From the NCBI GenBank assembly GCA_040285855.1, contig JAUFOQ010000006.1, forward strand, positions 62,001 to 126,000: DNA of 64,000 nt, written 5' to 3'. Position 1 is the first letter of the stretch. Every line of letters starts with the position of its first letter. Source of the DNA: Eukaryota sp. GEM-RC1. Its lineage: Eukaryota. Made by a program: the position numbers and the translations under genes. This document shows, piece by piece, positions 17,754 through 62,527 of the stretch. The notes under the pieces were generated by a model, which searched no databases, was not told the origin of the DNA, and was given only the letters and a program-made list of their open reading frames with translations.

Positions 17754-17826
17754 GTTTCTGTAGTGTAGTGGTAATCACGTGATGCTCACACCGTCAAGGT
17801 CCCGGGTTCGACCCCCGGCAGAAACA
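17754..17826 (+). tRNA. trnV-CAC: tRNA-Val (anticodon CAC)
   Basis: Acceptor stem GTTTCTG/CAGAAAC, anticodon arm TGATG-CTCACAC-CGTCA, T-loop GGTTCGAC. No encoded CCA. A T6 Pol III terminator follows at 17828-17833. Confidence 0.97.
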
Positions 17827-32552: not shown

Positions 32553-35091
32553 TTACCAAAACGACCACCGGATACGATTTTTTGAGATCTTATTGATATA
32601 AGTTTGAGTTTGATGGTCAATAGGATTCTTCCGAAGATTAATTTCCATTATAACAAGATTATCTTTCACCGCTTCTGCCAATGCCACAGCACCTTCATTC
32701 CCAATAGAATTTGATTGTAAATGCATCATGGAAATTGTAGATGTATTTTTCAAAACTTCCGCCAAAACCATCGCACCGTCATTTCCGATAGAATTGGACT
32801 GTAAAAAAACCATGGAAATACTAGAATTAACTTTCAACAGTTCGGCTAATACTTTAACTCCATCCAATCCAATGGAGTTGTGTTTGAGAACAATCGTAGT
32901 TAGTTTAGAATCAGAACTGAATTGAAGATGACCAAACAGCTTTAAAAGGACATCATCAGACAATGAACAATTATTGAAATCAATGGAAGTCAATGTCTCA
33001 TTGGTCCTTATTAAATCACGTAAACTGTTGAGTGCATCGTCGTCAGCAATACGACATCTAGTAAGTGAAAGTTTTTAACTTTGACACTCACCAAAAAGGA
33101 TTGTAGAGAAGAAATTTCTCCTGCAGTTATTGTAGGCCATAAAGTTTGTGGAAAATAAGAAAATTCGCGTTTTCTAAAACTAAAAACATTAGGAAAGAAA
33201 CAAAGGTCAATTACCGATCTATACATACATCGGATTTGAATATAGTAGAGGACACTTAAAAAACTTTGATGCTCAATGTCACGACATTCAACACTCATAA
33301 TAGGAACATCTGCCTTCAAAGCATCTAGTAGTAGAGCTAATTCAACATCTGTAACTTGATTTTCATAAGAAATTAGTCCCTGATGTCGATTAATAGAATG
33401 AGGAGGAACGACAACTCCACATATCATTGAGTTTGCTGACGTGGCGAGCTGGAAAATCCCGACAAGAGTTTTAAAAGTCAAAGAATTCTTGTCGAGACTA
33501 ATATAATGTAGACATGATGTTGATTGAATATCAGCAAATATTTTTAAAACATCGTCATCAGACAGCTTACAATCATCGAATTCGACAGAAAATAAAGTGG
33601 TATTGACCCTGAACAAATCACGCAAACTGTTGATTGCATTTTCAGAAAATCGACACTTTTTTAAAATAAGACTTTCAATATCATGGTTTGATTGTAAAAT
33701 CGACTGTAAAGAGGCGATGTCTTCAGCTGAAACATCCGTATGAATTGAAGGTGAAAAACAAAACTCACCGTCATCAATGTTGACAAAATGAGGAGAAATA
33801 TTAAAATCTATAACGGAATTATAAATAGTAAAAACTTCAATAAATTCTAAAATTTTCGCCAAAGACGGATTTTGCCAACCACGGCATTTAACACGTTTAA
33901 TGGGAAGATTTGATTTTAAAGCATTTAAAAGTACACCAATATCATCTTCATTAAGAAGATATTGATAATCAATAGTACCAGTAGAAATATCAAGTGAATG
34001 TGGGAGAAAATCCAAATTGCAATTATAAGAATTTGAATAAATGACTTCAAAACATTTGATTAAAGAACTAAACTTCAAGTGAATCATATAAAATTTACAG
34101 AGTGTAGAATTCTGTTGAAGTCCTTGAAATATTGGAGCAAAAAGAAAAGTTTGACACTCAAAAGGACTAAAACAAAAAGAAGTCAACCCCGTGTTCTTTT
34201 CCAACATCTCTGCCAAGGCAATTGTCTCTTGTTCAGACGGATTTTGTTTGCCATGTGATATCACTAACGTATGAAGCGTAGTGTTACTCTCAAGTGCTTT
34301 ACAAACTGATAAAAGTGACGAGCTACCTTCCGTAATGAAAAGTGATTTTAAAACGGTATTGACTTTAAAAACATTGGCGAGAAGTTCGGTACAAAAGTCA
34401 GTACACAACATTGTTACTTCTTTTAGAGAAGAATTGTTCTCAAGCGCAACAAGCACGCGAGAATCAAGAGACTCATACCGAGTAATAGTCAGAGATTTTA
34501 AATTTTCACTGCTAAAGAGTGGCACGACAACAGAAGAATCGCCCTTTTCTTGACTCTTCAATGATACATCTGCTTCCTGAGTTGAACTACTTTTGGATAG
34601 AGAGGTGAAAAGACGAAGTAGATCAGAATTGTGAAGAGAACATGTGTGATCCCTCAATTTGATCCTTTTCAATGTCCTGTTTGTAGTGAACATGTCACCA
34701 AGATCATTGGCATGTGATGGACGGAAATCATAAAAATCTAAGTCCAAATCATGAACTGACGAGTTGTTCATGAGTGACTTACAAAACAAAGATAAACTAT
34801 CTTCAGAATAAACAGAGATAATGAGACGTTTAACTCGTGGTAAAAACTGGGGGGAAGATTCTAATAAGAAGCCAGATTGGCTAAATGTAGACAGACCCAT
34901 TTGAACCAATTCAACGGTGTGACATAGAGGTAGGATCCTCTCAGGATTAACACGGAACTGATGATCAATCAGGTAGATGGAATGTATATGAGCGTCAAAG
35001 AAAGAAGAGATCTTGGAAAAACGAAAAACACTACCAAAATCTGAAAGAAGCTTCCACAGAAGACACAAAGACACAAAGTTATAACTATATG
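32553..35091 (-). pseudogene. 3' part of an NLRC3-like LRR gene interrupted by the 26-kb element (frameshift near 33075)
   Basis: LRR motifs (LQSNSIGNDGAMVLAEVLK). The frame stays open up to the junction (YSYNFVSLCLLW...) and joins the 5' part at 61349-61716 in frame. Confidence 0.85.
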
Positions 35092-35092
35092 T

Positions 35093-36094
35093 ACAACATT
35101 TGTAACTACAACATTTGGTGATACAACATTTGTAATGACAACATTTGTAACTACAACATTTGGTGATACAACATTTGTAACTACAACATTTGTAACTACT
35201 GTCAACTACTGAATAGAGCCCCTACCGATTAGAGCCCCAGAGACAAGGGGCTCTAAAACAGAGCCCTACTGAATAGAGCCCTTAATTAAAAACACATCAC
35301 TAATTTAAATATAAGATATTGAAACTAATAAATCGCTCTATTTAAGAAAACTGAATAGACTAGTCCACATCAATTTTTTTTTACCATGGATCCAAAATCT
35401 CATCGTTCAAGAGCAGGAATTTCAAACCACCGACCCCGTCTTTCAAAAAGAGACGTTCTCAAGCGCAAATGACTGTTTGGGTTTAAACAAAAGATACTTA
35501 TTGAGCTAACAACTGAAAAAGGTGAAAGCTACTGTGCTTTCAGAACCACTGAATTTGATTGCTGAAGACGTTCTAGCTTAATTTATCTGTAACTCATAGA
35601 CTTGACCCATAAAATCACCGAACAATCAGTGGTTATTTAATCAAAAGTGAGCTTAAAAAACTACTGAATAGAGCCCTCACTTATAGCGGCTCTAAAACAG
35701 AGCCATACCGATTAGAGCCCTACCGATTAGAGCCCCTATGTAATTTTTTTGTGGCTCTAAATTAGAGCCCGGGCTCTATTCAGTAGTTGATAGTACAACA
35801 TTTGGTGATACAACATTTGTAATGACAACATTTGTAACTACAACATTTGGTGATACAACATTTGGTGATACAACATTTGTAATGACAACATTTGGTGATA
35901 CAACATTTGGTGATACAACATTTGTAATGACAACATTTGGTGATAGAACATTTGGTGGTACAACATTTGGTGATACAGCATTTGTAATTACAACATTTGT
36001 AACTACAACATTTGGTGATACAACATTTGGTGATACAACATTTGTAATGACAACATTTGGTGATACAACATTTGGTGATACAACATTTGTAATG
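35093..36094 (+). repeat. Left-terminal array of 27 x 15-bp units (ACAACATTTG + TAACT/GTGAT/TAATG), interrupted by a MITE
   Basis: 7 units at 35093-35197 and 20 units at 35795-36094, with an exact 15-bp period. Confidence 0.95.
35199..35793. mobile_element. 595-bp TA-targeting (Tc1/mariner-like) MITE nested in the 15-bp array
   Basis: 23-bp TIR CTGTCAACTACTGAATAGAGCCC (1 mismatch). TA duplicated at 35197-35198 and 35794-35795. Removal restores a perfect repeat unit. Internal AGAGCCC(C)TAC repeats. Confidence 0.92.
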
Positions 36095-36198
36095 AAAGTG
36101 TCGTATGTGGAATGAATTGTTGACATTGATATTTTTTTCTTCTATATATAATGTCGTTAAACACAACCAATACAATATACAATCTCAGTTTATCAAAC

Positions 36199-38627
36199 TT
36201 AACTAACACTACTATATCCCCCCATCACCCTCGCAAACATCACAGCCAACGAAAACGACTCCTTATATCCAATCCCGCAACAATACTCACACATCACTTC
36301 ACGAAATTCATCCAATATTCCCAAACACTGTTCATCACAAACCAATTCATCATTTAAATCTAGTATCGACACAACAAAAGTATTGGTCAACGACAACACA
36401 TAAAAGTACTTCTCCTCATCATTCAAATGAAAACTCAAAATTTTGGCCACTATTAAATTTAAATCTTTTAACAACTGAAGTTTCAAACTCATATGTGATT
36501 GACAGTCTGATGTTGAATCATTTGGTTCCAGTGCAGTGGTACAATATTGTGGACAATTGTGAGAACCTTTGTTTCTGTCTGCATTGCAATACTATGAGTA
36601 TTGTTCAAGTTGTTTTCAAAATCTGTCTGAAGACCAAGTGAATTTGTTATTCTGTTGATAGATGCAGTGTCCTCATGATCTGTAACTTTTTTTGATAATT
36701 TCAAACTAGGTAAATTCAAATTTGGTTTGAGAGTATTTCGAGACAATAGATTTGGTCTCAATTTAGGCAAAGTACTAACTGTAGTTTTTTTCAGTTTTGG
36801 CACAGGTTTGTGAAAAATTAAATCAGAATTGATGGCACTTACACTTTGATCATTGAGACAATCATCGTCATCATTCACAACAAAATCATTCATACTAGAC
36901 GACGCATCGTCATCATCATCAGTTTCATCATCTCCACTATCACTTCCAGAGACAACAACTTCATTATCGAATAATTCTAAAACTGAATCAGAAGTGGTAT
37001 TAAAATTGTCATTTTTGGAACATCTTCCACCAAATCTTCCTTAATTTCTTCACTGACTTGATCAAGAACATCAACAGTTTCCATACTATCACCAACACTA
37101 GAAATAATATTGGACGAAAATTCATCAAAAGTCTTCAACACAGAAGGCCAATTTCTAACAATTTTTTCATTTTGTAAAGACAAAGGATAAAGAGGTTTTG
37201 TAACTGGTCGACAGGGGTGAAAAGTGGAATAATACCACTGATAAAGATCCATCCTTGGCTTTGGAAATCTTGAAGAAATATCTAAAATTTTAATTGAGTT
37301 CCAATTCTTCACCCTACTCAATGTGACGTACAATTGGGCATACTCCCAAAAATTTAATGAAACTTCAATTCCTTCAATTGTTAGACCCTGAGATCTATGG
37401 ACTGTTATTGCCCAACAAGGACGAAGAGGATACTGCAATCGGGATGCTATAATTACAGGCTTTTTCTTCTCATTTAACACCTCAATTTCAAATTTAGTCG
37501 GAGTAATTTTGATTGGTTCTTCGTCCCTCCCGAATCTTACATTAATGAAATGTGAAGTCTCTGAAAAATCAATAATTTTGCCTTTTGGCCCATTTACTAG
37601 ACCCAGATCTGGTTTGTTTTGGGTAAACATTACCAAACCCCCGACGACACAGTGAAATTTTTGTTCGGCAAAATCGTTTAGCCTACTTGATAATTTTTTT
37701 ACATTTAAATCAACAGCCTTTTCCATTTGTTCCTCATTAGGCTTACCAAATGCCCAACTTTTACCAATTTCTGATTTAATTAAGGTTTCATTGAACTTAT
37801 CGAGGGAATGAAATTCAACATTTTCATTCCCTTGTTCAGATAATAATTCAAATTGCTTTAAATTTTCGTCGGCGACATCCTTGTTTCTAGCAAATAATTT
37901 GGTTGGACTTTCAATATTTTTGGCTAATGAAATTTGTTTCATATAGTCATCAAAAAGTCCGAGACGTATTTCATTCAAAAAATAAAAAAATTGACATCAC
38001 TTTCTTGTCGAATACTTCCAGATAATTCAATAAAATTTAAATTCAAATCCTTCCAAGACTGTGATGAAAACGTAAAGTCTGAAAGTTGAAGGACATTACG
38101 GGTGTTTGAATCAGACTTTACAATTGGTGCAAGTTGCAAAAAATCACCAAAAATTACAACTTGAAGTCCACCAAATGGTAACTGAGACTTTAGTAAATCT
38201 TTAAATATATCAGATGCTCTGTTGAATAATTCAGCAGTCAACATTGAAATTTCATCAATAACAAGCATTGAATTTCTGGCAGTAATAGATCTTAAAATAG
38301 ATTTAACACTCGAAGGCATAGAGCGAATGACATCAGATATTGGTTTTTCATAACGGATAAATTATAACCAAAGAGAGAGTGTAGTGTTTGACCACCAAAG
38401 ACAGTTGAAGCAACACCAGTAGTAGCAGTAAAAAAGACATGGCCACCTGGTCTCATTATCTTGGAACCCGCATTAGACCACCACTGTTTAAGACAGTACA
38501 GTAGGTAAGACTTGCCCGATCCGGCACCACCAGTAATGAAGAAATTCTTACGCTTAGAAGGTCTAGCATGAGTTATCGCTTGGAAGACCTGAGCCTGTTC
38601 GTTTGTAAGTGTGTTGATAATGGACAT
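36199..38627 (-). CDS. PIF1: PIF1-family SF1B DNA helicase with acidic/low-complexity tail and Cys-rich C-terminus (several frameshifts)
   Basis: LTNEQ, FFITGGAGSGKS, TATTGVA..GGQTLHSLF, LVIDEISML, PFGGLQVVIFGDFLQLAPI, IRQ, GLVNG, RLQYPLRPCWAITVHRSQGLTI, QLYVTLSRV. Linking the 36199-36893 ORFs is inferred. Confidence 0.9.
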
Positions 38628-39084
38628 TGAGTGTGTGAAGTGGTGATGTTTAAGATGCAGATTGTGCAGGGAAACTTTCCTTTCATTATAACTTATATAT
38701 CTACCTTCACTGTATGGACAATGCTGGTCGTACACAAGTCTTAGCAGCTTATTCTACCATCATCAACTTTCTATCGTCTCGTATGTCAAATTATATGTCT
38801 TTGTAAAATGTGATGTTGGTGTTGGGATCGATCTTGATGAAATAGAGCAATGTATCGTGTCATTGGACTACTTTCGAGCACTTCAACACATATCCGAGTC
38901 TTTTAAAGTCACCCCCTTGATCTTACAAATCAAACATGAGATCTCTCTCCTAGCACTCGTTGATGCCATTCTATCTGAAGACAAGGTACCTTCTGCTTCT
39001 GTTTCACTAAATCCAAGGTAATTTCTCCTCCTCCCTGCATAGCTGATGTTCCTCGTAGAAGTGGAACACACCGATCTGTGTTCT

Positions 39085-39888
39085 CTATATGTCGACTGTA
39101 ATCTCCTCATTGCTATATGTTATAAAATAAAACTGTTCTTTATACTTAAGCAATGAATCAATGAAACTCACAAACTCCTTGTCACAATCTGCATCACATT
39201 CACAAATCTCATTCACATCAAACAAGTTGAACAACGAAGACACCCTTTTAACAACAACGGACATTTCAATAAACTCCTCATCTTGACTGTTCTCACACAT
39301 AAGAATTATATCTGTCAATGGTTCAGAACATCCTGTAAACTCTTGGAATACTTCAGTAAGTAACAATTCCCTACATTCATCAACATTCAAGGACAGTAGC
39401 AAAACTGTCAATACTTTAACTAGACACTGCCGATCACTAATACTCCAAAGAAATTCGGAAATATCATTGAGAAACAATATTCTTGCACACTTTGTGATCA
39501 ACAACGTGTTATACATTGCTTGTAAAGAATTTGCAAGTACAAATAACAGGACAGAAAAACAATTTAGCATTCCCTCAACATCTACACTACTACTACAACA
39601 ACAAACAATTTTGAATACCACGTTCCACAATGGAATCGACGGCATTGTCTTACATTTCGCTAGTATATGTGAGCAGATTGAAAGTAAAGGAGATAAAGAA
39701 GTTAAGTCATCTTCAGGATTTGGATGAAAGCTCATACGATGTATGTGAGACAAAAGTGATGTCAATTTGTCAAGAGAGTTAAGTTCTCCTATGGCCATGC
39801 ATTTGATACACCCACATGCTTGTATTTGTTGAATGAGATATGTTTCAAAGAATGTTGCCAAACAATCTTGTAAGATATTGTTGGTCAT
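39085..39888 (-). CDS. Hypothetical helical protein with Cys clusters (element cargo)
   Basis: 267-aa ORF with CGCIKC and CECDADC. No family recognised. Confidence 0.55.
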   Translation of the reverse strand: MTNNILQDCLATFFETYLIQQIQACGCIKCMAIGELNSLDKLTSLLSHIHRMSFHPNPEDDLTSLSPLLSICSHILAKCKTMPSIPLWNVVFKIVCCCSSSVDVEGMLNCFSVLLFVLANSLQAMYNTLLITKCARILFLNDISEFLWSISDRQCLVKVLTVLLLSLNVDECRELLLTEVFQEFTGCSEPLTDIILMCENSQDEEFIEMSVVVKRVSSLFNLFDVNEICECDADCDKEFVSFIDSLLKYKEQFYFITYSNEEITVDI

Positions 39889-39930
39889 TGAATTGATAGT
39901 GAAGGAAAATATTTTTCCGGCAAAAATCCA

Positions 39931-41081
39931 ATGTCAGTTGTATGTCTTTATTCACTCTCATATCAGTCTTCAGATGATGCTACGTCTATGTCTGTCAATT
40001 ATAACAAGAAACGACGCTCTAACGCTTTCCGAAGAAAGAATATGAACAAGCACCAGGATGTCTATAACGTCTTTAGTTATACATCGACAAAGGTGGATGG
40101 TAAAAGTGTTCAGCTCGGTCCCAATGGGGATTATATTCTAATTTCACGACCTCGTGATAATTCAACAGATGGACTTTCTATAAGTACCAACAATGATGAA
40201 TTCCTCTCAGACTTGGTACAGTCTAAGGAAGACTTTTTGAGAATATTGTTCACTTTATTAATTCTAGAACTCAGTATTTAGCTTCCCAAGGCGCAAAAGT
40301 ACCAGACATTTCTTCACGTTTTAAGAAAGTGTATGGTATGAATGCTGAAGAAAACGAAGATCTTTCTGAGTTTTATTCGATTGCTCCTAATAGAACTCAT
40401 ATTGTTAAGAAAAAGAACAAGCACCTTAAAGAAGCTAAAGTTGTGAGCAAAGAAGCCACAACTCCAGAACCTCTCACAAAGTCCTCTCGTAACTCTCCCG
40501 TTGAATCCGCTCCTTCTAATCCTACTGAAAACAATGAAATTCAATCCTCCCTAGGATCACTTGTTTCCAAGACTTTGGGACATCAGTGTGGAAAGGAAAA
40601 GCCTATCTCAGGCAGCGATAAGAGAAAGAAGTTAGAGATAAAGAAGTTAAATGTAGGACCTGTTTTGCAGAAACAACTGGCAAGTAGAACAAAATAAAGA
40701 AGATGTTGTTTATTGAATGAGATAAGTGTGCATGGTCTAGTATAGGACTCCGAAGATGTGAAGTGAAGTCTAAGGTCTAGGTTCACTTTTCTTTCATACA
40801 TGAATCCACTGATCTAATTCTAGATAACTGAACCTCAACCTAAGAAGATTGTTGACGTTGACAGCGTTGTCAAGACTGGTCATGAGGCAGTGACTACTCT
40901 TTTAGCAAACTCTAAGCATTCACTTGACGAGAAGGAACTTGAACTCATCTTTAGTGCAGTTGCTTCCGCCCTTCGTGAAACCACCACCCCAGTAATTGAA
41001 AGAGCTATTCGAATTGCTGGTGATACTACTCGTGATACTGCTAGCCTCATACACCATATGCGATTTAAAACTCATCTTTAG
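39931..41081 (+). CDS. Hypothetical element gene, fragmented
   Basis: ORFs 39931-40281 and 40329-40697 link by one shift at a T-run (~40236: DFFENIVHF...KKVYGM). The link to 40890-41081 is unclear. Confidence 0.45.
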
Positions 41082-41201
41082 TGCAGTTGCTTCCGCCCTT
41101 CGTGAAACCACCACCCCACCCCAGTAATTGAAAGAGCTATTCGAATTGCTGGTGATACTACTCGTGATACTGCTAGCCTCATACACCATATGCGATTTAA
41201 A
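40942..41201 (+). repeat. Tandem duplication, 127-bp period, 2 copies
   Basis: AACTCATCTTTAGTGCAG...GCGATTTAAA at 40942 and 41069. The second copy has a 5-nt insertion. Confidence 0.92.
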
Positions 41202-41754
41202 TTTGTTTTTATAGATCATTATTGTAGTTTTCTTTGTTTAGATATCAATAAAGCATCCCGTTCTTCTTTTGTTTCAAGTCTCTTCCTTGTTAACACGAAA
41301 TCAACATATACGTTCTAGTTCAATGCATTGTCAATGTTGTGATACACAAGAGCATTGAAAATAACATTGTTGATGTATTAATTAATGAATGATGTCAAGT
41401 AAGTAAGTACAAAAATGTTGTATTTGAAGTGTAGGAGATATCCGAAGACAGAAAAGATGTCTGCTATCTGTAGACAAACAAGACAAGACTCCAAAAATGA
41501 ATACTGCAATTTCACTTTTCTTCTCTCTTGACATGCGTATGATCCTCCATCTTTCTAACTATAGACATTGTGATGATGCCAAAAGTAAGTTTTGGTCACG
41601 ATATGTGCTTGCTGCCACGTATATCTATGAGAAGTGACCTCTTTACATAGATGGCAATTCCGCTCTTCTTGTCAATTTGTCTCCTGCACTCGACAATTGG
41701 GCAAGATGAGTTGGGTTGTCATCTGGTGTATCGTGGTTGCACTCATTGCTTTGC

Positions 41755-43600
41755 TTTGCGTCCACATCCGCCATTTCTCAATTCCGCCATCCAGATACTG
41801 TTTCCATTGCACGGTCACGGGATTTGGATGGTGGGTTGAAGGAATGTGTTGTTCCGTGGTTTTCTCTTTATACACTTCTTCTGTGATGATGCTCCTTCAG
41901 TTATCTCCTCTGCTGAAAACACTGGATTTCTGACTGATTCTTGCTGAATGCCTCTTGCATTGTATGTTTCGTAGATCCGCTTGAAGATTGTCCTCTGAGA
42001 AGTATGGTTGTCTTGTGATTTGTCTTGGCCATACTGTATAACTTTCTTCGTTCCATCGTGATTGAGCCATTGTTAACAATCAAACAGATCGCTGAAAATC
42101 CTGAATTTTTAATCAGTAATCGTGCATCGGCCATACTGTATAACTTTCTTCATTCCCTCCGTTTCATTTCTCTCTGCTCTTCTTCTCAAAGTCATAATGG
42201 GAACATCTTGAGCAATAGCTTGGTGGTATATCTTCGTTCCTCTATACAATTCAGAAGTAGAGTAGATCAACAGATGTAAATGGTCTTTATGTCATATACA
42301 TCACCTCTTCAAATCCTGCCACCCCCGCTTCTTTGGGAACAAAATTCGTTGGTGAAAAACAGAAAATGTGACTTTCAATATCAATTAAGTTGGGGGAGAT
42401 ATCCAGATCAATCACTGTCCTGTTAATAGACAGAATTTTGCATAAAGTAATAAGGCCTTTCATACTGGGACTTCTCAATCCAAGACTGCGGGAGAAATCA
42501 ACTCCATTACCATTCAAATGAAAAAAAAATCTCTCTTTAATGTCTTTCTGTTTCCAGGCAATGGAATACTTAGTCTCATTGTCATGTTTGGCGTCCAATC
42601 ATAATCATTACACGATGTTGTTAGATCATTACCTTCAATGGAAACGACCTGCCCGCTATGTTTACAGTTTCCCAAGCACATAGTTCTACCAGCCACAAAA
42701 CTCTCCGATTTTATCAATGATTTATGTGATAGTGATTTGCAAGAAAGAAAAAACGTGTATAAAATTGTAAAACACACGTTCAAAACAATGGAATGATGTC
42801 ATGAGTTCTGAGAATAACAGTGGAGAATGTCGTTCATTCGTTGCTCTCGTACAACTTTTCTGTCTTTTTACGATTTGTTTATCTAAATTAGTTTTTTTGA
42901 AAAAACTAGAGCGATATTTAAATGAACTAAGATCTTAATTTCACGTTTCGTGGATATGGAAGATTCTAATGTATGTTTCCTTTGCTAAAACAACTCTCAA
43001 CTATTGAAGAATCCGAATTTGTTAGTTCACTACTGTCAACCCTGTCACCTCAACTGAACCCGAAACCCTGCAATGGAGTCTATCTTAAACAGGGTATCTT
43101 AAACAACAATTAAAAAACGATAAGGAAGGCTTTTCAACGAGGTTTTCGAAACTTTTCTTAGTTGATTTAGCTGGATCTGAACGTGTTGGTGATGCAGGAA
43201 CGTCAGGGATTGGCTTGGTGATCCCTAATACTATAAGAAACCCTGCAATGGAGTCAGTCTCGAGTTGAGTTAGATAAGGATAGGGAGGCTGTATCATCAA
43301 AGCTACGGCAGTGGAGGTTGAAAATCTACTGTTTATCAACAAGTGCAGTTGTATTTGAGTTACAAAAAGTTTTAATTACAACTGATTCAGTTCCAAAAAC
43401 TTTCAAGGCTTGTTTCTATGAAGAGAAATTTTTTAGACGTAGACGCCTTACACAGTATTCAAGAAAAGAACGAAGTGAACAAAACTTGGTCCACAGATTT
43501 GCTCTCCAATAAGGTGATCCAGATTTTCACATGAATCAAAAACTTGCCATTGGAACGTTGAATATAGACAACGACGTTGTCGAAACTCTTCATACAGAAT
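41755..43600. other. Patchwork of short fragments copied from the element's own genes and from host genes
   Basis: At least 12 segments match other parts of the element, plus an LRR-gene fragment and a kinesin LVDLAGSER fragment (see findings). Confidence 0.88.
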
Positions 43601-44004
43601 GTTTTTGATTTAAACTTTTCGTTACTAAAAAATTGTTTTAGTATCTTCAAGTAAATCTGTAGTTCTCATCATGAAAAGAACCAGTCACAAGATAATTAAT
43701 AAAGTTAAGGCTCATTGTTCTGGGCCATCCTTTGTTTGTACTGAACAGAATCACAATGAAGGTCAACAATGTGTAAAGAAATGGCGACTTCCACGAATTA
43801 AGTGTCAGGACCTGTTTGCAAATTCTTGAACAATAGATGGTTAGGACAATACAAATTGTACATTAATCCACGTGAATGACAAATTCAACACAATGAATAA
43901 ACCCTTGTTTGTCTACTGTCGTATTGTATTGATTGAAAGTCAAAAATGGAATTTTTGTTAGACTATGACTTACTTTAGACATAAATTTTCCTCTCTGTAC
44001 AAAC

Positions 44005-45703
44005 ATGTCAACATCATTCCGTGTCCGCCAACGTTTTCCCAAACAACAGATGCAACTAGACTTCGTAAATGACATTCCTGCGGAAGTTACAGATGTTGAA
44101 ATAATCATCGTCCAAGACACTGCGGGCGACTTCTTCATTGTCGTAGTGTATAATGGACATATTCAATACCATTTAAATCTCGTTCTTGTAACATCAGACG
44201 TTGCACAAACAAAGTTCCTTTTCAGCTTAACATCGTCCTCTAATCTTCGTGCAATCACTCCCCTTGAAGATACACAGTGTATTAGCGACGTGATATCTTT
44301 CATCGTAAAAACCACCCTCTCATCTCATAACCTGATTGTATCCCCTTCTTCTCTTTCCAGTTTGACTAAAACAGTTAACGAGGCTCTTGCTATTCCTGTT
44401 AAAACTACTACTCCTTCAATTTCTACTTCATCTGATTGTTGTTATGTCTATTCAGTTATCCATTTTATTATACGTCACATTGAACGTTTCTTCGAACTCA
44501 ATGTAAATCATTTCAAAGAACTAGATTTTGATACTCCTGCTACTCCTCTCTTCAATTGTTTTTATTCGAAAGATATTGAAGGTGTTCGTGCGCAAATCGC
44601 TGACATTTATCCTGTTTTTGCGGCGGGTCAACACGATCCTTTCAATTTCCTTGCCAAACTTTTAAAAACACTTGACAAGGAATTCCGCACCACCTTGCCA
44701 TCTTCATCAAATGATGAATTACACTCTTTGTCAAAAATTTGAACCACAGTCTGAATCAGAAGAAACTGATACTACAGACTTCCAATATTATGGATATGAT
44801 TTAGATGAGAAACCATCACCAAAAAAAGTTCAGACTCAGTTAGATGTCAAATCATCACTTCAGCAAGATTTAGATCAATTGTTGATAACTCAAAAATTAA
44901 AGCATTCTTGTGCTGTTAATGCATTTTGTTTCTGTATTAAAACAACAACAAAATGTTCTTGGTGTGGGACTGATCCAACATCTAAAATTCACTTCGCCTT
45001 GGAAATTAACAAGGAAAGTATCCAAAGGCGGTATCCTTCTAGACCAACCGATCTCGAATCATTGTTGCAAGCTCATCTACCTTTTCGAAAAGAAATAATT
45101 TGTGCTACTTGTCCTGAACAAAAATCAGAAATTACTGAAACTTTTGCTTCTCTTCCAAAAGCTCTTATCATTAGACTGACTGGACATCCTCAACCAGTTA
45201 TTATTTCTTCAAATCTATCACTCTATCTATTCCTGTCTTCTGAAGCACAATTGGGTTCAGAATCGATTGAGTTTTCCCCTACCAATGAAATCAACTCACA
45301 ACTGCCACTTAAGGACATTTACACATTGTCTCATTATCCAACATCAGAAGAATTGTCTGTCTTTGACATTTCTAATGAAAATGAAAGAAAGTGTGGGAGT
45401 CAGCATTTTGTTAGAGGTAGTGATTGGGAAAGAAGTACCAGTCGAACCTCAACCGCCAAAGTGTCAACCAAGACCAAAAGTAGTGTTGAAGAAAAATACA
45501 CATACAGACTGCTGTCTGCGATCTGTCATTACGATTCCCTTGCTGACGGTCACTGTGTGACATATGCAAAGGAAAAAGAAGGTTCTTGGTGGTTACATGA
45601 TACCAATAGTGATTGCAAGAAAGGTGTAGACGAACAGACAGTATTAACTGAGATTTCTTTAAATGGCTATGTTTTACTTTATCAACATCAATATTTAGAA
45701 TAA
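44005..45703 (+). CDS. USP-family (peptidase C19) deubiquitinase-like protein, frameshift near 44735
   Basis: Cys box-like SDCCYVYSVIHFI, GQHDPFNFLAKLL, CSWC...CATC, SLPKALIIRL, His box YRLLSAICHYDSLADGHCVTYAK..WWLHD, GYVLLYQ. Confidence 0.85.
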
Positions 45704-45853
45704 ACGCATAGTAATAAATTGTTCTACATGTATCTAAGAGAAAATAAAAGTGTACACAAAGCGATCCTTGTAAATGTAGTTGTGAAGACATGAGAATTCC
45801 TTGTTCTATCAGTACAGTATAGTTGTTTACAGCTCCATAATTTTCCCACTCCA

Positions 45854-48800
45854 ATGACTTCTATTATACTGCTAACACCCCTCGCCTCGTCCACATCCGC
45901 CATTGCTTCATCACATCACCCAAACACTGTTTCCATAGCACGGTCACGGGATATGGATGGTGGGTTGAAGAAATGTGTGGATACGTGCTTCCCGATGTCG
46001 TTTCCGCTTATTCTGTGCTCTATCCTCTCGTCCACATCCGCCATTGCTTCATCACATCACCCAAACACTGTTTCCATAGCACGGTCACGGGATATGGATG
46101 GTGGGTTGAAGAAATGTGTGGATACGTGCTTCCCGATGTCGTCTCCGCTTATTCTGTGCTCTATCCTCTCGTCCACATCTGCCATTGCTTCATCACATCA
46201 CCCAAACACTGTTTCCATAGCACGGTCACGGGATATGGATGGTGGGTTGAAGAAATGTGTGGATACGTGCTTCCCGATGTCGTCTCCGCTTATTCTGTGC
46301 TCTATCCTCTCGTCCACATCTGCCATTGCTTCATCACATCACCCAAACACTGTTTCCATAGCACGGTCACGGGATATGGATGGTGGGTTGAAGAAATGTG
46401 TGGATACGTGCTTCCCGATGTCGTCTCCGCTTATTCTGTGCTCTATCCTCTCGTCCACATCATGGAAACGTGATCTCTCTATCGATGGAGACGTTGAGCA
46501 GAATCCAGGTCCCCATGATCGTTTACCATCCCCAGAAGTAAAGAGACCCAGAAGAACTTCTGTGTCACCATCGCCTCCTCCATCTCTGCCAGAACCGCCA
46601 ACTGAAGAAACTCTAACAGAAGAACCGCCAACAGAAGAAACTCAGCTAAAACAAAAGAAACATAATCAAAGAACTAAATACCACATGGGCATATTGCATC
46701 GTTACTGCCGTATTCCACATGAAACTTTTGCCCATCCAGTGCTAAGATCTGGAAGAACACCTGGTTTCCAAGTTTGTTCATGTATGAATCATGTTTTTAT
46801 AGATGAATCCGAAAACTTAACTGATCTCGCTCCAGATGTCATTCCCAATCCAGACAATGAATCACGACGCTCGTTCCTGGCCCAAATTATGCAAGAGTGT
46901 TGCAAACCTGGTGACACGCCAAGTAATTGGAGAATTGAAAATTACATCATGGCCAAACACTATGAATCGGAGTTGATTGAATGTCAACAAGATGCTAATC
47001 ATTACTTGCTCAGTTATGATGGAGCGTTGGAATCCCTCCATAAATATTGGTGTCAATTGTGTGACCCTAATCGAGAATCTACTGTGAGTTTACCGATTAT
47101 GCCTCTTGGATTCAAATATGAGATGCCTCCCCATTGTCCTCAAAAACAACCTTCTTTTCGTGAATCGTTTTGCCTTTTTATTGCTCCATGTCTCTTCTGC
47201 CTTCTTCCTGGTCACAGTTATAATGATTGTCCCTTCCAAACTTTTAGACTTAGTGATGTTTCATTAAGTATCACATCCTTGTATCAAAATATCAACCCTA
47301 AAGTTTTGGTACGTCCTGAGGTTATGCTGGACATTTTATTAACAATGCTCCATCTGCAATTTGTTGTGGATGAGAAGAAACTCAACCTTCAAGTGTATGA
47401 TCGTACGAATAATCATTTTACTTTGGAAATGTTCAAAGAAAACCAAAAAGTGATTGAAAAGTTTGCAAAGTCAAAAGCTGGTTATAAACTCAAAATGTTA
47501 ATCTTTGATATTGCTCATGTTATTGAATTAATTGAAAAGAAGCCCCCAAAAAACCTGATGTTGATGTCAAAGATTCTGATTTTGAACATACTGACGATCC
47601 TACAGACGATCCTTTAAATGATGACGAATTTGATGATCTATATAATCAAACTTCTCTTAGTATTATGTGGGATGATTTTAATAATATCAGAGATTCGTCA
47701 TACACTTCTCAATTACTTTCAAGATTTTTTAACTTTTGTCATTTTCTCGAGCACTATACTTTTGTGGATACAGATGAAGAAAGCCGCATTGTCGAAATTA
47801 AAGACCCTGAAACTAAACAAGTTGTAGAACGGAAAGAAGTTTACCGACATCAGTTTACTGTATATCAAGATTTTTTCGAAAACAAAATTGAAACTATGAG
47901 TATGCTCATGTTCCAACTGTCATTTTGTGCCCATTACCATTCAAATGAAAAAAAAGATCTCTCTTTAATGTCTTTCTGTTTCCAGGCAATGGAATACTTA
48001 GTCTCATTGTCATGTTTGGCGCCCAATCATAGTTATTACAAGATGTTGTTAGATCATTACCTTCAATGGAAACGACCTCCCCGCTATGTTCACAGTTTCC
48101 CAAGCACTGCAACTGTGGCTTCACCAGAGGAACCAACGTCGGAATTTACATCAATTGATTTTCCTAAAGTATGCTCTAAATTAGCACATTTGAAATCTTA
48201 TGTCCGCGAAAGTGATTTACTAACACAAATTCTTGAAATTTTGACAATAAATGAACAGTGGAATCATACTGTTGACAGTAATGACGCCTACTTCCACTTG
48301 GTGTTTTCTTGCTTTCAGTTGATTTCAAAAGCACGTAACTGCCGTATTGCATTTGTTAATGAAGGAAAAGACACTTTTTATCAATTGTTTCGTGTTGTTG
48401 GTCAAAATCATGTCAAAGACAACAATATTATTCCGTTTATTGTTTCTGGTCAAACAGGTTCCGGGAAATCTGTCTTAACTGGTGTTGTTGTGGTCATGGT
48501 TACTTTGAAACCAATCATTGTGTGTCAACCTAGAGTTCTACCAGCCACAAAACTCTCCAATTTTATCAATGATTTATGTGATAGTGATTTTCCTCTGTCT
48601 GGATACCGAACAGGCAACAAGAATACGAACATTCCAGTACATTCACCAAGATTTATCGAAGTTCAAACCGCTGCCTTCACTTCTAAATTTCTGACAAACA
48701 ATAGCAATCTGTCTCGATTTGCAACTATCATGGTGGATGAAGTTCATGAAAGAAAATGTGACATTGACATTTTATTAGCACAAATGAGAATAATTTCCCA

Positions 48801-51800
48801 AACTGATTCAAAATTGAGAGTGGTAATCTGTTCGGCAACTATGGACAAACCTAATCCTTGTTTTAATTACCTTACACAAGGAAATTATTTAGATAACGAA
48901 CCCTCCTATACTATCCATGCAGCTGGAAGAACCAATCCACTGATTGTCCTTGATGTGAATCTTGTTCGTCAAAATGAATTTCATTATAGTCCCTTAATAT
49001 CAAAACTTGTGATAACTCCGATTTTTGAACCTACACTTCAACAGGTTTTCAATGATCATTTTATTGATATTTACACTTATTTTGTCTTAAATGTGAACTT
49101 ATACTACGACTATTTCACTCAAAACTGTAATCCTCTTTCATATAAAAGTATCAATTTCAGAGCGTTAGCCCGACTATGTCTCTGTTATTACTCCCTGTCT
49201 CAGAAACTTTTCCGGTATGAACCAGAATGTACAGGATTTACTTTGCTCGTGTTTCTTCCTGGAAGTCCAGAAATTACAACTCTCAGTAATATTATTGAGA
49301 ATGAGTATGAGAGTCAGAAAAAAGTGGATCTGGTGGTCTATACATCCCAGCTTCTTCTGAGAAGCCAGGTGTGTATCCGTTGTATTCAAGTCTGGATTCA
49401 GTCCAACAAGATGCAGCTGTGGCTAAACCAGCGAAAAAACAATTTAAAATTGTCATTGCTACCAATATAGCAGAATCTTCCTTGACTATTGATGGGGTCA
49501 AATTTGTCATTGACTGTGGTTTGTCAAAGCAAACTGATGCAGATGACCTTCTCGACACTCATCATTGCTCCATTGCTTCTTTGGACCAGCGCTCTGGTCG
49601 TGCTGGAAGAAATTCTCCTGGACTTTCGTTACGTCTTGTGCAGACAAACTTATATCCGGATGGAACTTCGAGATTGCATTATGATAAACCAGAAATTCTA
49701 ACTTGTTCGTTGATTGAGCCATTGTTAACAATCAAACAGATCGCTGAAAATCCTCAATTTTTAATCAGTAATCGTCCAAATCCCCCTGAATTTTTTTATC
49801 AGTCAACTGCCTGATGTTCCTTCTAGCGACAACATCATGTCTTCGGTTGATGTTCTTTTCCGCACTAATGTTCTTTCAAAAACCAACTAAATTCTCCCCT
49901 TACTTATCTCGGAAAGATTTGCACCAATGCCAATATTTCATTCTACAACTTCAAGTTTTTATTTTTCTGTTTAACAAACAATTACCTGTGTCCTGGATTG
50001 ATTCTTCTTGCGGGTATCAATTCTATGTCGTTCATTCGTTGCTCTCGTACAACTTTTATGTCATTTTACGATTTGTATACCTTTTCACAATCGATTCCTT
50101 TACTCAAACAACTCTCTACTATTGAAGAATCTAAAGTTGTACGTTCAGACATGTTTTTCAAATTATCCTTGGTTCATTACATTTTATGTGGCGAATTTAT
50201 TAAAAATCTGGATATTGTCCCAACACGTGATCAAACCCTTAATGATCAAGCCCTTAAGAATTTATCTAAATTAGTTTTTCTGAAAAACTAGAGCGATATT
50301 TAAATGAACTAAGATCTTTAGTTTCACGTTTCGTGGATATGGAAGATTCTAATACTCATCTCAAAAATCAATTAAATGTATTGGAAGGCATTGCTCTAAA
50401 GCTTGTCAATTTCATATCAAATCCTTCTGAAGTTACACTCAATATGTTTCAAAATGAATCAACAATCTTCTCTTCTCTTTTGAACCTCCAAATTCAACGA
50501 CGTCTCTCTTTCAAGCCATTGTGGCTTCTTATCCCAATAAGTCATTCCATTCAACTGTAGTAGACAATTCATTCTCAGTTAGGTTGAAGTTGGAAGGTTA
50601 TGTCAATGGAGAAAAATTTAACAACTTTATAAAGAAATTGTTTGATGAACAAAATATTGTCAAATCTTCCAAATCTCTAAAAGTTAATGACAGTGGTGAT
50701 GACAGTACTCGTTCAGAGACATTATGTTCAAAAGTTAAAATTACTTCAGATCTAGCTCCAGGTGAAACCCAAAGCACTGTTGTTATGTTGCATTCAGAGA
50801 ATACAACTGAAATTGAAAATCTACTGTTTGTCAACAAGTGCCGTGGAACTCTTGATTCATTAAAAAAAATTTCTCTTACGTTCCATCTTGATTGGCATAG
50901 ATTCATTATCAAATCACGATTCAATTTATCAATGGCATTGAAAGTTGTCAATGACCGAGAATTTTGGAACATGTACAACCAATTGTTACAGTGGGGTAAT
51001 ATCGTACATTTGACTATACCAAGAAATTCTATTAAATTAACTTTCGACATTATGTCAAGTCCTTGTAGTGATTTGACTCAATACACTCGTATTGATAATG
51101 AGTGGTCCAAGGAAGTTAAATGTGCCAAATCACTGTTCCCTGTACCTACAGATCTAGGTTATCATAATGGTATTTCTGTTGGTGATAAGTTTCCACAATT
51201 CTTGTCTCATATTCCTTCTTCATGTCAATACTTGTTCATCGTATGGCAAATGAACTTCAATATCAATTTGGTTTCGGAAATGGCAAAGCCATCTATCAAG
51301 GTTGGTACACCAATGCATTGTCAAGATTCGAGGTTCAAACAATTAATTGCATACAGTAATGAGCTGGATATTCATGGATCTTTTGAGGTAAAACGTGTCT
51401 GGAATGTTTACTGGCCTTATCATGAGTTACCAATCGAATCCACCTTTGGATGTATCAATCGATTACGTATTTTGGTATATTTAACGGAACAAGGTGAGGT
51501 TCCCATAACTGTGTTGAAATCGTGGTATGACAACATTATTATTCTTGATTTCAACTTACTGAAAAGTAACAGTCCACCAGTTACCGTGGATTATGTGAAT
51601 GGAAGGAAACATCATTTCCAGTTACTAAATTTCCAAGTCAATGATGAACAGGACCTGTTGATGTGCTTTGATCCTGCGTGTCCTTTATGTGCATCATCAT
51701 GTACTACACTTAATGAAGTAGTAAATTCTGAAATTACCTTAGCCCAACACAAGGTTGAAGAACCTATGATCCCCGAAAACGCTGACCTTCCTGAACCCAT

Positions 51801-53529
51801 GATTAGTGAAACTACTGCATTGCCCCAGTCACCAGTAGCTACAAGTACTTTGGATTTGTCATCTTGGACTAAGTCGTATTGTACTGCCTCTTCTCATACT
51901 GCTAAATATTTAGGACAAAATGTTCAAATCTTAAATTTTACACGTGAAGAAATGAGAACTTTCTATGTTGTTTTTTCATTTGAATCAAAAATTGCCATTG
52001 GAACGTTGAATATAGACAACGACGTTGTCGAAACTCTCCATACAGAATTTTTTTCTGCTAATACTCCTACTCCTACTCCTACTCCTGTGTTGAATGTTAC
52101 ATTACGATTTGTAGTCTACAACATTGATAAAGAACTCCGAAGGTTCAGTCGCAGTATTGATGATGATAGACCACAGTGTAAACCATTTGACAATCAATTG
52201 ACTATGTTTGCACTTCATCATCAATTGCTTTACCAGGCCATACTGATTGCTTTTGAAGGGCCCATATTTATGATTCAATACAAGCCAAAAACAGACAAAC
52301 GAAAGACTATTCGACAAGTATTACCGTTGCCGTTGGCCAGAGACAGTTTTGATTCTCAATGTATTGACATGGCTGCTGCAAAAATTGTTTTGTTGTCGCA
52401 ACGAAGACTCTGTTGTTGATCATTTTTGTGCAGGAAGATGAAAAAAATTGTGTTAATTGTTCAGAATTATCAACATTAATGGATTTAAACATGTCTGAAA
52501 TTGATCGTGACGAAGAATTCAAAAGTTTGAAGTGCTATGACGATTTCGTTCTAGTTGTCGGCACTTGTTCCATCCGAAAGTTAGACTTGTATGAAAGGGA
52601 GCTGCTTGGTGAACAACCTGTATGGGAATTTTGCTCCTGTCACAAAGATGACAGAATTATAGATGCAGTGTATGTTAAGCATTATGACACAATAATGTAC
52701 ATCACGGAATTTGGGTTCTGTGTTGGTTTCGGTTTGAAACTACCAAAGAAACAGATTCAATTTATTATTGATTGTTCAAGTGGTGAGTTCACAGGTCAAC
52801 TGTTAAAAATCGATTTTTGCAATGATTTAAATTCTTTCATTGTTCTGAAAAGGATGGAACACTGTTAATGCTTTCAGCATTATCTGTGATTGGTATTTCT
52901 GGTGTACCATTAGAAGTTCATGATGTTCGCTCTTGTGATTCAAAAAATATTTACGAACAACGAAGTCTTGAACTACATGCTTTAACTGTTCAATCGACTC
53001 AACAAGTTCAACAAGTTGAGATTCCTGTTGTTGAAGAAAGTGCTCATCCCATCGACATTGATACGACGAAAAGACTTCAGTTTCTTTCATCTAGATGGAG
53101 TGTTGATGAAAAAATGAACAAGGTGAAGCATTTGTTGACTATATTTGAGTTACAAAAGTTGTAATTACAACTGATTCAGTTGAAAAAGTAAGGAAACTTT
53201 CAAGGCTTGTTTCTGAGGTTGCTTTTAAAGTTGTGACACTAGAGGGTGGAAAACCACGAAAGATTACATCAAGTCTGAAAATATTCGATGAACAGACTGA
53301 TCCTGTTTTATTGATCAGTACTACTCAATTAGCGGTTAACCATTCTGTTCGGGCTGATCTTTGTATAATCTTTGATCTGCCAAATGATGCCAGACATGTT
53401 TACAATTTGTATGAACATAATCAAAAAATCGTTGTCTTTTACGATTCTATCCGTGATAAGGACAAAAAGCAAAATTTGGAAAAACACTTCTTTAGACCCT
53501 CAGGATTGCAAGCACTTGATTTTATATAG
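45854..53529 (+). CDS. ~2550-aa polyprotein: 47-aa repeats, 2A peptide, CCHC knuckle, DEAH/RHA helicase, long unknown region, degenerate helicase-C-like end (many 1-nt frameshifts)
   Basis: DVEQNPGP, CLFCLLPGHSYNDC, GQTGSGKS, IVCQPR, MVDEVHER, ICSATM, LVFLPG, IVIATNIAESSLTIDGVKFVIDCG, QRSGRAGR. Consecutive + ORFs link mostly at homopolymer runs. Full continuity is inferred. Confidence 0.75.
45886..46461 (+). repeat. 4 x 141-bp near-identical tandem repeat upstream of the first 2A motif
   Basis: CCACATC phase at 45891, 46032, 46173, 46314 and 46455. Confidence 0.95.
46463..46513 (+). other. 2A-like ribosomal skipping (StopGo) peptide WKRDLSIDGDVEQNPGP
   Basis: Exact D(V/I)ExNPGP consensus, in frame with ORF 45854. 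Confidence 0.88.
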
Positions 53530-53998
53530 TCTTTCAATAATTCATTGATGTTTTTTTATTATGTAGAACAATATAATAATTATAAGTCTTTATTACAATT
53601 TTTCTTTATTTATCAATCAACGAAGAAGTTGATTGATTGGGTTTATCTGGTCTAAATTTATAATTTATTCCATGATTTTTCACATAAACTATGCGACCAC
53701 ATCTACACTGAATATGTAACAAATTGGTCTGGTTTTATATGTCACATTTTCTGACATACTAAATCTGTAACAAATTTCTGTCAGATTTCAGGTGGATGAA
53801 ATTCACGGATTGTTCTGTGTGTAATAACTATGTAACAAAACATTGGTATTCAGACTACGTCTGACACAGTTCAAACTGCAAAATTGAACATTGTAATATT
53901 GTACAATTATTATTGTTTATTTGCTGTGTTATTCTTATATGTTTTACAAAATTATAAATACATCTATATTGTACTATTTATTCTCTATCACTGTCAAT

Positions 53999-55524
53999 TC
54001 ATTTTTTTAAAAGTCTTTTTGATTCCAAAAGCACTTGCAGTGGTTTTAATTCTTCGTTTTCCTGTTTTTTCCCTAAAACTTCATTTTCGTCTTTTGTCTT
54101 TGACGATTTGTTTTCAAATTTTGTTGTTGAACCATCAATTACATTTTGTTCTGTCACCAAGTCAGGTTGTACACTCTGAAGTAGATCATACATAACAAGA
54201 CATAGATTTTTTCTTGATCTGTTAGTGTTTAATTTTGTCTGATTTTGTTCCTGACGTGCATCAACCATTAATCCTTGTAAAATTAAAGTAACATTCAAAC
54301 AGACAATCCATCCACAGATAAGAGACGATGTTGACTGTGCAAAAGGTATATAGTAGTCCACCTTATACTCTGGTAATCTTGCAAACAGATTTGTTTCCCC
54401 ACATCCATAAACAGTTCTAAAAGGATTAACGATTAATTCAGTGGTTAATGAATAATCCAAAGAATCATAAATATTGAATAATAAAACATTTGCTTCATTT
54501 AGAAACAATTCAATAAGAATCCAATGACCAGATCCTGCATCACCAGGAACATGTTCTTTCACCAAACATAATGGGGCAAGAATTCTTTTCCTGATTTTAG
54601 TGTATCGACAATAGCCTTACCAGAATGTAAGGCATAGCATATTGGATCACCTACCAACTGTTGAGTTTCTTGAGATTGCAGGAATTTGTACCTACTTGAT
54701 TTAAATTTTTGGAATGCAAGCATCACAATGAAATCAAGTTCAGAACTCAACAAGAGTTGTGTTTTACCTTCCCTATCATCCTTTGTCAACATTTTCTCAA
54801 TATCACTAAATTCAAATTTTAATTTTGAATTTATGTAAAACTGATCACTGATTAAATCTACAGAAAGAATCAACGGGTTACGTTGTTTTTTGCGTTTCAT
54901 AGGTTTAGATAAATTAGCATTATCACTGACTGGAACAGGAACTATTTCAGATGGTTCAGAGAAAATAGAATGAATATGATTGATTGCGAAGTTATCAATA
55001 CGACGTTTTGGTGAAGGAAAAACGACTTGCGATGGAGTATCGTCAAAGCGAGTATTGTCACAATCATGTAAAAGAGGAGGAGACTGAGGCTGAGGAGGAG
55101 GAGGGGAACGAGCAATTGTAACTCGTTTAACGTCTTTGAGTAGATCCTTAAGATGATTTAGAGTTGAAGTTGTTGAAGGAAGTGGAAGAGATATGTCACG
55201 CTTCTCATAAGAACCATCAAAAGGAAAGAGATGAACAGTTTCTAGATCAACATCTAGCACAATGGCAACGGCTGATTTGTAGTTGAGGCAAAAATCCATG
55301 GTACCCTTTTTAAGATCATCTGGTAAGTCAGATGTTGACACTTCCGTTATGTGGATGGATTTAGTTCTCCATGAATTGTATGTTCCATAAGGAAGAAGAA
55401 CAAGTGACAAGTTAACTGCATGCTTATCAGCAAGCTTTACAACAAGTTTCATATATGTTTTGATGGTACGGGAACGACTTTCTTGTTCAGAAGTATTTCT
55501 GAGTTTGAAGATTGAGTAGGACAT
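53999..55524 (-). CDS. Ulp1/SENP-like (peptidase C48) cysteine protease with N-terminal extension, frameshift near 54570
   Basis: GSGHWILI (His), IYDSL (Asp), AQSTSSLICGWIVC (Gln, Cys). Upstream LLSSELDF lies in ORF 54559-55524. Confidence 0.78.
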
Positions 55525-55638
55525 GGGAAATTCTGATATAGACTTTATTACAGTTTTCGTTTTTTAACACGTGAATTCACACACACATGTCCATTACAGT
55601 CTGTGTGGGATTTCATTTTCCTTCCTCCTACAGTATAA

Positions 55639-61222: not shown

Positions 61223-61372
61223 ATCTATGAAGTTAGCCCGTCTTAAAAGACTTTGCGAATGAGGATATTTGTCTAATAATTTAGACATTTGTTCAAACTG
61301 TGAGTTTTGCTCTATATGAGATCATGAAAATGTGAAGGGTTATGCCCTTATGCATTTGGAATGAAATTCACA
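61223..61372 (+). ncRNA. Candidate Fanzor omega-RNA (scaffold to element end 61348, plus ~15-20 nt flank-derived guide)
   Basis: Lies between the Fanzor stop and the mapped element end. Hairpins TGTCTAA-taat-TTAGACA (61270-61287) and AAGGGT-tat-GCCCTT (61335-61349). The 5' boundary is unknown and may overlap the ORF. Confidence 0.6.
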
Positions 61373-61716
61373 GTACCAAAATCTAGGCGAAAAGTGATAT
61401 TCTTGAAGAACAGAATAACTGCAGAAAACGCCAATTTACAGAATCGGTTGCTGATAAAACCAACTCTTTGTATGAATGTCTGTAATTCTGTTTTCAGATT
61501 GTGATATTGAAAAGTACCTAAACCAGAGCAAGACTTCGCTGAAAGTTTGAGCCACTGAGACGTGATTGATAGCAATAGAGAGTCCTGGAGACGGATAGAC
61601 TTGGGAGACGTTAAAGTGGTGTCAGACGGTTGAGGAGAGGAGAGGGAAAGAATGTTATCATTATCCAGTACAGTGTCTGAAGGACGACTGGACTTTAATG
61701 GAGGTTCTTCAGTCAT
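61349..61716 (-). pseudogene. 5' part of the interrupted LRR gene
   Basis: MTEEPP...IRLQDSLLLSI...RVGFISNRF..AVILFF resembles the N-terminus of LRR paralogue 24742 (ICLSESLLTLI...TLGTVSLRV..ISSFL). The stop arises only on entering the element. Confidence 0.85.
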
Positions 61717-62527
61717 AAAACTGTTGTTACTGTAGTGCAAACTTGAAGAAAAATCATCTTAATTCACTTGAACACAACAAAACTTGTTTGTTTTTTCATA
61801 CATTGCCAATACCAAATTTTTGCGAGAAAAGATGACTTTTTCCATCATTTTTTGGAATTCAAATGCTGACAACACTGTGCTAAGAGCAGTTAACTTGAGT
61901 TTCTAAACAAAGGATGCTCTTTGTTTGATCTCTGGTTTTGATCAAATTGTTAATAAAAGAATGTAATGCGAACTACAAGAATGAATGCAATTAATGATAC
62001 AATTAATGAATCCCAAAAGCACTTTCTGCTCGTAGTAGTTTCATTAAAGGAACACTATCTGCAATTTTTCGGAAATGAATGTTGTCTTATTGATATTGCG
62101 TTTAAGTTTTTGTTATTAAATAATTGAATCTGTCCAATTCATCACATATTGTCGTGTCGGATGTGAGTTTTTTTACATAAAACTCAAGGGCTCAATTTTC
62201 TTCATAAATAAACTATCTCATTGAAACTCATGAATTAAGAACAAATGAAATGTTGTTTGTTAAGGTCTGATCGTACATTATATATGAAACCAAACGTATG
62301 CCAATATCTTTCAAAACATTGTTGAAAATCACGCGGCCACTAAAGATAACATCAACACGTAGCAGTAGTCTTCAAGTTCCTGAAGATTTCATTAACATTT
62401 TGGTTCAGAAACACTGTCAGTACATGTAGACATATATTGAAAAATTGTTGAATCCGGGTCACAATATTTATTGAAAATGTGTTGAAATGTATTGCGCCTA
62501 TCAATGAAATTTTTATACAGTATGTAA

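Follow-up and report, generated by a model that had tools for sequence, protein, structure and literature searches.

We analysed a 64,000-nucleotide stretch of DNA, hereafter the window, from Eukaryota sp. GEM-RC1 (GenBank assembly GCA_040285855.1, contig JAUFOQ010000006.1, positions 62,001 to 126,000 of the forward strand). The left half of the window carries ordinary eukaryotic genes (MCM, Vps39, UFL1), with a 24-nt inverted pair, a 20-nt palindrome and a tRNA-Val gene in the host DNA at 15615-16481 and 17754-17827, and two host stretches, 18117-18429 and 61910-62118, share a weak inverted similarity (69-75%). To the right lies a large mobile element with the following main features:

35032..35042, + strand: left 11-bp target-site duplication, chance of such a repeat 0.0056
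35043..61373, no strand: whole mobile element, 26.3 kb, with a perfect 11-bp direct repeat at both ends and multicopy genes
36159..38627, - strand: PIF1 helicase gene, frameshifted in this sequence, cluster of 19
45854..50560, + strand: 141-bp repeats, a motif that we take to be 2A-like, a presumed zinc knuckle and the DEAH helicase; the main donor region
58718..61222, + strand: Fanzor/TnpB-family gene (PF07282, E 7.9e-8), frameshifted in this sequence
61374..61384, + strand: right 11-bp target-site duplication, matching the left copy perfectly

The gene content comprises PIF1, a ubiquitin protease, the DEAH helicase, Ulp1-like proteases, a PolB exonuclease domain (E 1.3e-7) and Fanzor. These genes fall into clusters of 14 and 5 (helicase), 19 (PIF1), 16 (Ulp1-like) and 26, 18 and 14 (parts of Fanzor), and close relatives of the element proteins (in the case of the DEAH helicase 66-95% identical) are recorded by NCBI under Eukaryota sp. 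GEM-RC1. If 35043-61373 and one copy of the repeat are taken out in silico, an 801-aa open reading frame belonging to a host LRR-family gene is restored, and 11 family-protein alignments span it with few gaps; the empirical chance of the 11-bp repeat was computed before frame restoration was required. Element ends at a 4-nt repeat were dropped as a candidate, with 2 spanning alignments versus 11 for the 11-bp repeat. Given that the element ends are flanked by the 11-bp duplication and that the host frame is restored, the mosaic described below lies inside one recent 26.3-kb insertion.

The element is unclassified. It has no terminal inverted repeats, the longest inverted match between the terminal 120 nt being 6 nt, and a hairpin with a 5-bp stem was noted by eye at 61335-61349, about 25 nt inside the right end. 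Searches by Pfam, PHROGs, motif patterns and ESM Atlas, none of them deep, gave no transposase, recombinase or reverse transcriptase; ESM Atlas returned nothing from 0.8 and otherwise HEAT-like leads of mixed families, and a single-sequence fold made in the transposase hunt reached a pLDDT of 39. A Crypton recombinase was not found in the element. Unlike in Helitron or Helitron2, PIF1 stands alone, without an accompanying Rep, and no HUH pattern occurs in six frames (a strict pattern and hence a weak test). Published Fanzor elements offer a closer comparison in the available part of their description (PMC3627910): CRe-1,2,3 have target duplications of 7-19 bp and MCi-2 has duplications of 11-12 bp without inverted ends, and in these elements Fanzor sits at the 3' end, internal deletions occur, the 5' parts vary and short stretches of sequence have been captured. 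The present element is like MCi-2 in its 11-bp target duplication, lack of inverted ends and 3' Fanzor, which is a likeness in anatomy. It differs from the CRe and MCi-2 elements, as described there, in its 26 kb with PIF1, DEAH, ubiquitin-protease, Ulp1-like and PolB-exonuclease genes, and in a capture that is internal and made of many pieces. Replitrons, as far as the available part of PMC10288648 describes them, provide no anatomical match beyond variable duplications.

Frameshifts in the element lie near homopolymers of at least 5 in 13 of the 15 cases checked, versus 116 of 496 background windows. This excess suggests uncorrected long-read consensus in the element, so small indels are not to be read as decay, and the element genes may be intact in the cell. 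Other copies of the family vary in structure. In P0049 and P0059 the exonuclease gene is joined to the Fanzor N-terminus; P0188 and P0189 have a different 34-aa repeat and a Ulp1-like module of only 35-47% identity attached to a 95% identical exonuclease gene; and P0001 is a helicase fused, across a deletion, to the gene at 51.3 kb. The family thus includes deletion and module-swap copies (P0001, P0188, P0189). At the left end, an approximately 600-bp MITE-like element at 35197-35795, with 25-nt inverted ends (96%) and TA at both outer ends, sits in a 15-bp array at 35092-36089.

Inside the element, positions 41759-43606 (1848 bp) are a patchwork, 1.85 kb long, in which at least 15 short pieces can be told apart (n = 15, 32-176 bp, median 81 bp):

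41759..41861, + strand: 141-bp hairpin unit in variant form, 83% identical to 45888-45990, fold z -4.6
41862..42337, no strand: stretch without a match, interrupted by a DEAH piece; a 23-nt sequence is duplicated exactly at 42027 and 42129 (31 nt if 2 mismatches are allowed)
42059..42126, + strand: nested piece of the DEAH-helicase gene, 97% to 49711-49778
42338..42481, - strand: piece of a host LRR-family repeat, running antisense to those of the element, with 79% identity to P0107 over 48 aa
42504..42738, + strand: two DEAH-gene pieces with 2-nt filler between them, 96% to 47931-48107 and 98% to 48534-48590, alleles of other copies
42827..43029, + strand: three DEAH-gene pieces, sources 50025, 50261 and 50095, at 93, 96 and 85%
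43049..43317, - strand: 126-bp unit in variant form, inverted and interrupted by the kinesin piece; a 19-nt sequence is duplicated exactly at 43062 and 43237
43095..43217, + strand: piece of a host kinesin motor, 41/41 aa to P0172, Pfam PF00225 E 4.5e-5
43318..43417, + strand: two gene pieces, 94% to 50813-50844 and 84%, with an 8-nt gap, to 53142-53214
43417..43524, + strand: Fanzor piece of a second subfamily, 83% DNA identity to 60372-60478, 35/36 aa to P0093
43524..43606, + strand: piece of the gene at 51973-52054, 94%

The original prediction had listed thirteen copy/source pairs in this region, and self-BLAST recovered all 13 (32-176 bp, identity 81-98%, E 5e-78 to 2e-7) with ends within about 11 nt of those proposed. 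When the window is divided into 32 two-kb slices, slice 42001-44000 holds 12 distant-match blocks (907 bp), and each of the other 31 holds at most one after hits into the mosaic are set aside; the match density of the mosaic is far beyond chance. Element matches cover 1001 bp of the 1848 bp, so that the element family makes up 54% of the mosaic, host-gene matches cover 267 bp and 580 bp match neither. The pieces were described as abutting, slightly diverged and mostly in source orientation. They abut only in part, given gaps of 197, 211 and 88 bp; divergence is slight for 8 of the 13 (93-98%) and larger for the other five (81-85%); and 11 of the 13 element pieces are on one strand. Two host pieces, two flanking duplications and the forward order of the pieces had escaped that first description. 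Reading frame changes between pieces, one piece contains a stop codon, and the stretches matching neither element nor host have no Pfam match, no meaningful PDB match and weak codon scores. Scanning metagenomes with a 19-nt mosaic word gave three loci, none matching the window over more than 27 nt and taken as chance, and the viral contigs and prokaryote genomes searched held no related loci.

The tandem units that contribute to the mosaic, of 141 bp (45886-46461) and 126 bp (55672-56138), have an 18-nt motif in common (10 matches versus 0.01 expected). In each kind of unit a long predicted hairpin carries this motif at its tip, on a stem that differs between the two (z -1.1 and -4.0, compared with -4.6 for the mosaic variant), and the hairpin loop is one that we take to resemble the U1A-binding heptamer. 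Both arrays are in frame and just before what is presumably a 2A-like peptide. The units have no Rfam match, and Rfam over 34000-64000 gave two weak hits below the gathering score; among the mosaic 141-bp unit and two window units (3 sequences) there is no covariation, as in 0 of 33 pairs have both partners changed. At 40942-41201, bordering the mosaic zone on the left, is a 132-bp tandem duplication with a 5-nt insertion, which may be part of the same rearrangement as the mosaic.

The pieces had been ascribed to the element's own genes. They do come from the element family, Fanzor included, but the donors are other copies of at least two subfamilies, together with host genes; other family copies match the fragments better than the window's own copy does. 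The DEAH pieces have two substitutions in common with P0007 and P0011, and one stretch is 19/19 identical to P0002 and P0012; the longest DEAH piece found no full match among the fetched proteins. Of 17 codons in the 85% piece (source 50095), 5 differ by synonymous and 3 by replacement changes, and the piece at 43524..43606 has one residue in common with P0024 that is absent from the other 7 family proteins aligned there. For the Fanzor piece, the comparison comprised the 14 fetched proteins that hold an exact anchor word, and identity is 33-35/36 aa to 8 second-subfamily proteins versus 28-30/36 to 6 window-like proteins; relative to the window gene, its first 21 codons contain 5 synonymous changes and 1 replacement. 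The DEAH pieces thus match the subfamily of the window and the Fanzor piece another one. Of the two host pieces, the kinesin piece is identical at 41/41 aa to a full-length gene and hence copied and recent; this gene, P0172, is the single member of its cluster and is recorded on another contig. The LRR piece was compared with 76 family representatives; P0107 was the best of these (79% over 48 aa), and the exact donor was not among them. The gene number of P0172 is 4 away from that of the PIF1 copy P0072, and 5.6% of numbers are that near a listed element gene; if gene numbers follow position, the kinesin gene would flank another element copy. Gene-number synteny of other copies was set aside, as clustering was weak (P 0.05-0.19) and split Fanzor halves were not adjacent.

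The arrangement of the pieces is not random. The 11 same-strand element pieces are largely in donor order (tau 0.82, P 1.3e-4; the test omits the two inverted 126-bp-unit pieces), with 8 of 11 in increasing order (P 0.002) and three out of order. The mosaic has all 12 independent element donors on its right-hand side (P 0.026 in a post hoc test). Two pieces are nested, the DEAH piece between 23-nt repeats and the kinesin piece between 19-nt repeats. Exact repeats of at least 19 nt at 50-300 nt spacing occur twice in the mosaic, each time enclosing a foreign piece, and not once in 32 kb of host DNA. The kinesin piece also has an 11-nt restart stutter, its first 11 nt being present at 43081 as well (P 0.0005); of five fillers tested this is the one with a significant local template, the other four having none. 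At the six direct joins there are overlaps of 1, 1 and 1 nt or fillers of 2, 2 and 6 nt, values that are approximate given that the window copy is a stand-in for the true donors. With the same stand-in donor, no microhomology above 1 nt was seen at these joins.

We consider the mosaic to be, with a probability of roughly 0.58, a template-switching repair scar, left by one or a few rounds of error-prone synthesis with many restarts. A broken or stalled end inside the element would have paired with other family copies, and the polymerase would have moved along the right-hand part of these copies in jumps of about 30-180 nt, making side trips to unrelated DNA and returning a few bases upstream, which would create the flanking duplications, before synthesis rejoined the element near 43.6-44.0 kb. 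Evidence of a function is so far lacking, and we take the mosaic to be a by-product. Donor order and a common strand point to copying along element templates and not to ligation of loose pieces. Likewise, foreign pieces enclosed by short duplications suggest that the polymerase departed, copied elsewhere and returned slightly upstream. The original prediction of template switching or filler capture is thus upheld by the nested pieces with their duplications, the 11-nt stutter and the joins with 1-nt overlap or short filler. Its idea of serial capture at a hotspot fared less well: there is no identity gradient along the mosaic (rho -0.39, P 0.19; 13 pieces, stand-in donors), and the forward order fits one or a few copying runs better. 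Nor did a trigger by Fanzor breaks find support, as three stretches at the right end that could serve as guides have matches of only 8-9 nt to the region, which is chance level. Template switching usually uses microhomology, and its lack at the joins is the main weak point of the repair-scar reading. The 580 of 1848 bp without a match, the 3 of 11 pieces out of order and the three inverted pieces also count against it.

Several other origins were weighed. A heritable capture site, at which repeated uptake is passed on by transposition and serves as a record or small-RNA source against relatives, would account for a stretch that is 54% element family from at least two subfamilies; the element was recently inserted, with a perfect 11-bp duplication, so the mosaic may have travelled along, and nesting permits more than one round. 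However, a constant repeat between pieces is absent, unlike in a CRISPR-like array, the only repeats being two unrelated duplications of 19 and 23 nt. The identity gradient is missing too, independent additions would not give a forward order, and a host kinesin piece lies inside, all of which makes such a site unlikely. When longer proteins were searched with a frame that spans three joins, three proteins were hit, all through the Fanzor piece only, which speaks weakly against such a site, as such DNA is rarely called as a gene. The stronger version, a dedicated internal site that records sister-subfamily and host pieces, is inherited and is used as guide or silencing RNA, that is, an adaptive transposon memory, is in our view highly unlikely. 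It is also doubtful that the mosaic was inserted as cDNA after a reverse transcriptase had switched between RNAs of the element and of the host. In favour of this origin, the kinesin piece and all 11 element pieces on the common strand are sense on the + strand and the two minus-strand genes contribute none, and near-blunt joins with small additions and duplications of 19-31 nt fit target-primed insertion. The LRR piece, however, is antisense, the 126-bp-unit pieces are inverted and no reverse transcriptase domain occurs among the scanned window frames and related proteins.

A break filled by end joining of loose fragments, from degraded extrachromosomal element DNA as well as from other DNA, would explain why joins overlap by at most 1 nt, and multi-fragment insertions are known in yeast from the available part of PMC11724301. 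We nevertheless regard this origin as very improbable: ligation predicts random order and strand, whereas 11 of 13 element pieces are on one strand and ordered, and the flanking duplications are left unexplained. An assembly or library artefact is just as poor a candidate. The excess of frameshifts near homopolymers (13/15 versus 116/496) does suggest uncorrected sequence errors in the element, but misjoins by overlaps or k-mers need common sequence where the joins have at most 1 nt, random chimeras would not be mostly of one family in forward order, and a host kinesin piece lies within a 19-nt duplication. Finally, collinearity with one decayed relative, which the original prediction had set against itself, is seen in part: 8 of 11 pieces are in order, and the family includes the deletion and module-swap copies P0001, P0188 and P0189. 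It is still extremely unlikely that a single related element inserted here and decayed by deletions into the mosaic: two host genes are represented, three pieces are inverted, two are nested between duplications, the DEAH pieces are of the window subfamily and the Fanzor piece of another, and no element ends or target duplication were seen around the mosaic.

Among known systems, the repair-scar reading finds its nearest parallel in the TST-jump chains of human cells after chromosome-bridge breakage (10.1101/835058). In the available part of that report these contain 8-14 templates with a median of about 180-200 bp, are joined bluntly or with little microhomology, include 2-20 bp whose origin is unclear and are attributed to template switching. 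As far as that description extends, the mosaic resembles them in its tandem short copied pieces (15 here), its clustered donors with some from elsewhere and its near-blunt joins (1-nt overlap or 2-6 nt filler, approximate); it is unlike them in lying in a protist element, in its median of 81 bp and in donors mostly from one family in forward order. The mosaic would thus work like a TST-jump chain or filler capture, an analogy that does not file it as a TST-jump member. Filler in other elements is explained in similar terms in the portions of the sources available, with Pack-TIR capture by gap filling and FoSTeST (PMC8277862) and maize Ds2 filler by gap repair or template switching (PMC3260210). 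Host gene pieces (kinesin, LRR) inside an element are a likeness to Pack-TIR, Pack-MULE and Ds2 filler as described there; an element without terminal inverted repeats and many tiny pieces, mostly of its own family, are differences. At yeast breaks, templated insertions copy and paste distant DNA, and according to the available part of PMC11724301 5-7% are complex, often with two inverted pieces of one locus, unlike the at least 15 pieces, mostly in direct order, seen here. The main text of a paper on the group of the element-protein relatives (PMC11316075) is without Fanzor, RNAi or Argonaute. We found no description of the element or the mosaic in the literature searched, which included Fanzor with metamonads and comprised few subscription papers and no supplements.

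As a chain of pieces from many templates the mosaic is real and unusually dense, and the giant Fanzor element that contains it is unclassified. If the mosaic is a repair scar, it would be a natural example of a template-switch chain with many jumps, such as has been described for broken human chromosomes, in a host from a protist lineage reported to be without classical end joining (the available part of PMC8516963 describes metamonads without Ku and DNA-PKcs, from a set of species that excludes this lineage). The 26-kb element, with Fanzor, two helicase types, several proteases and no recognisable transposase, may merit more attention than the scar. For the element family, such template switching would be a route to swap subfamily modules and to pick up host genes.
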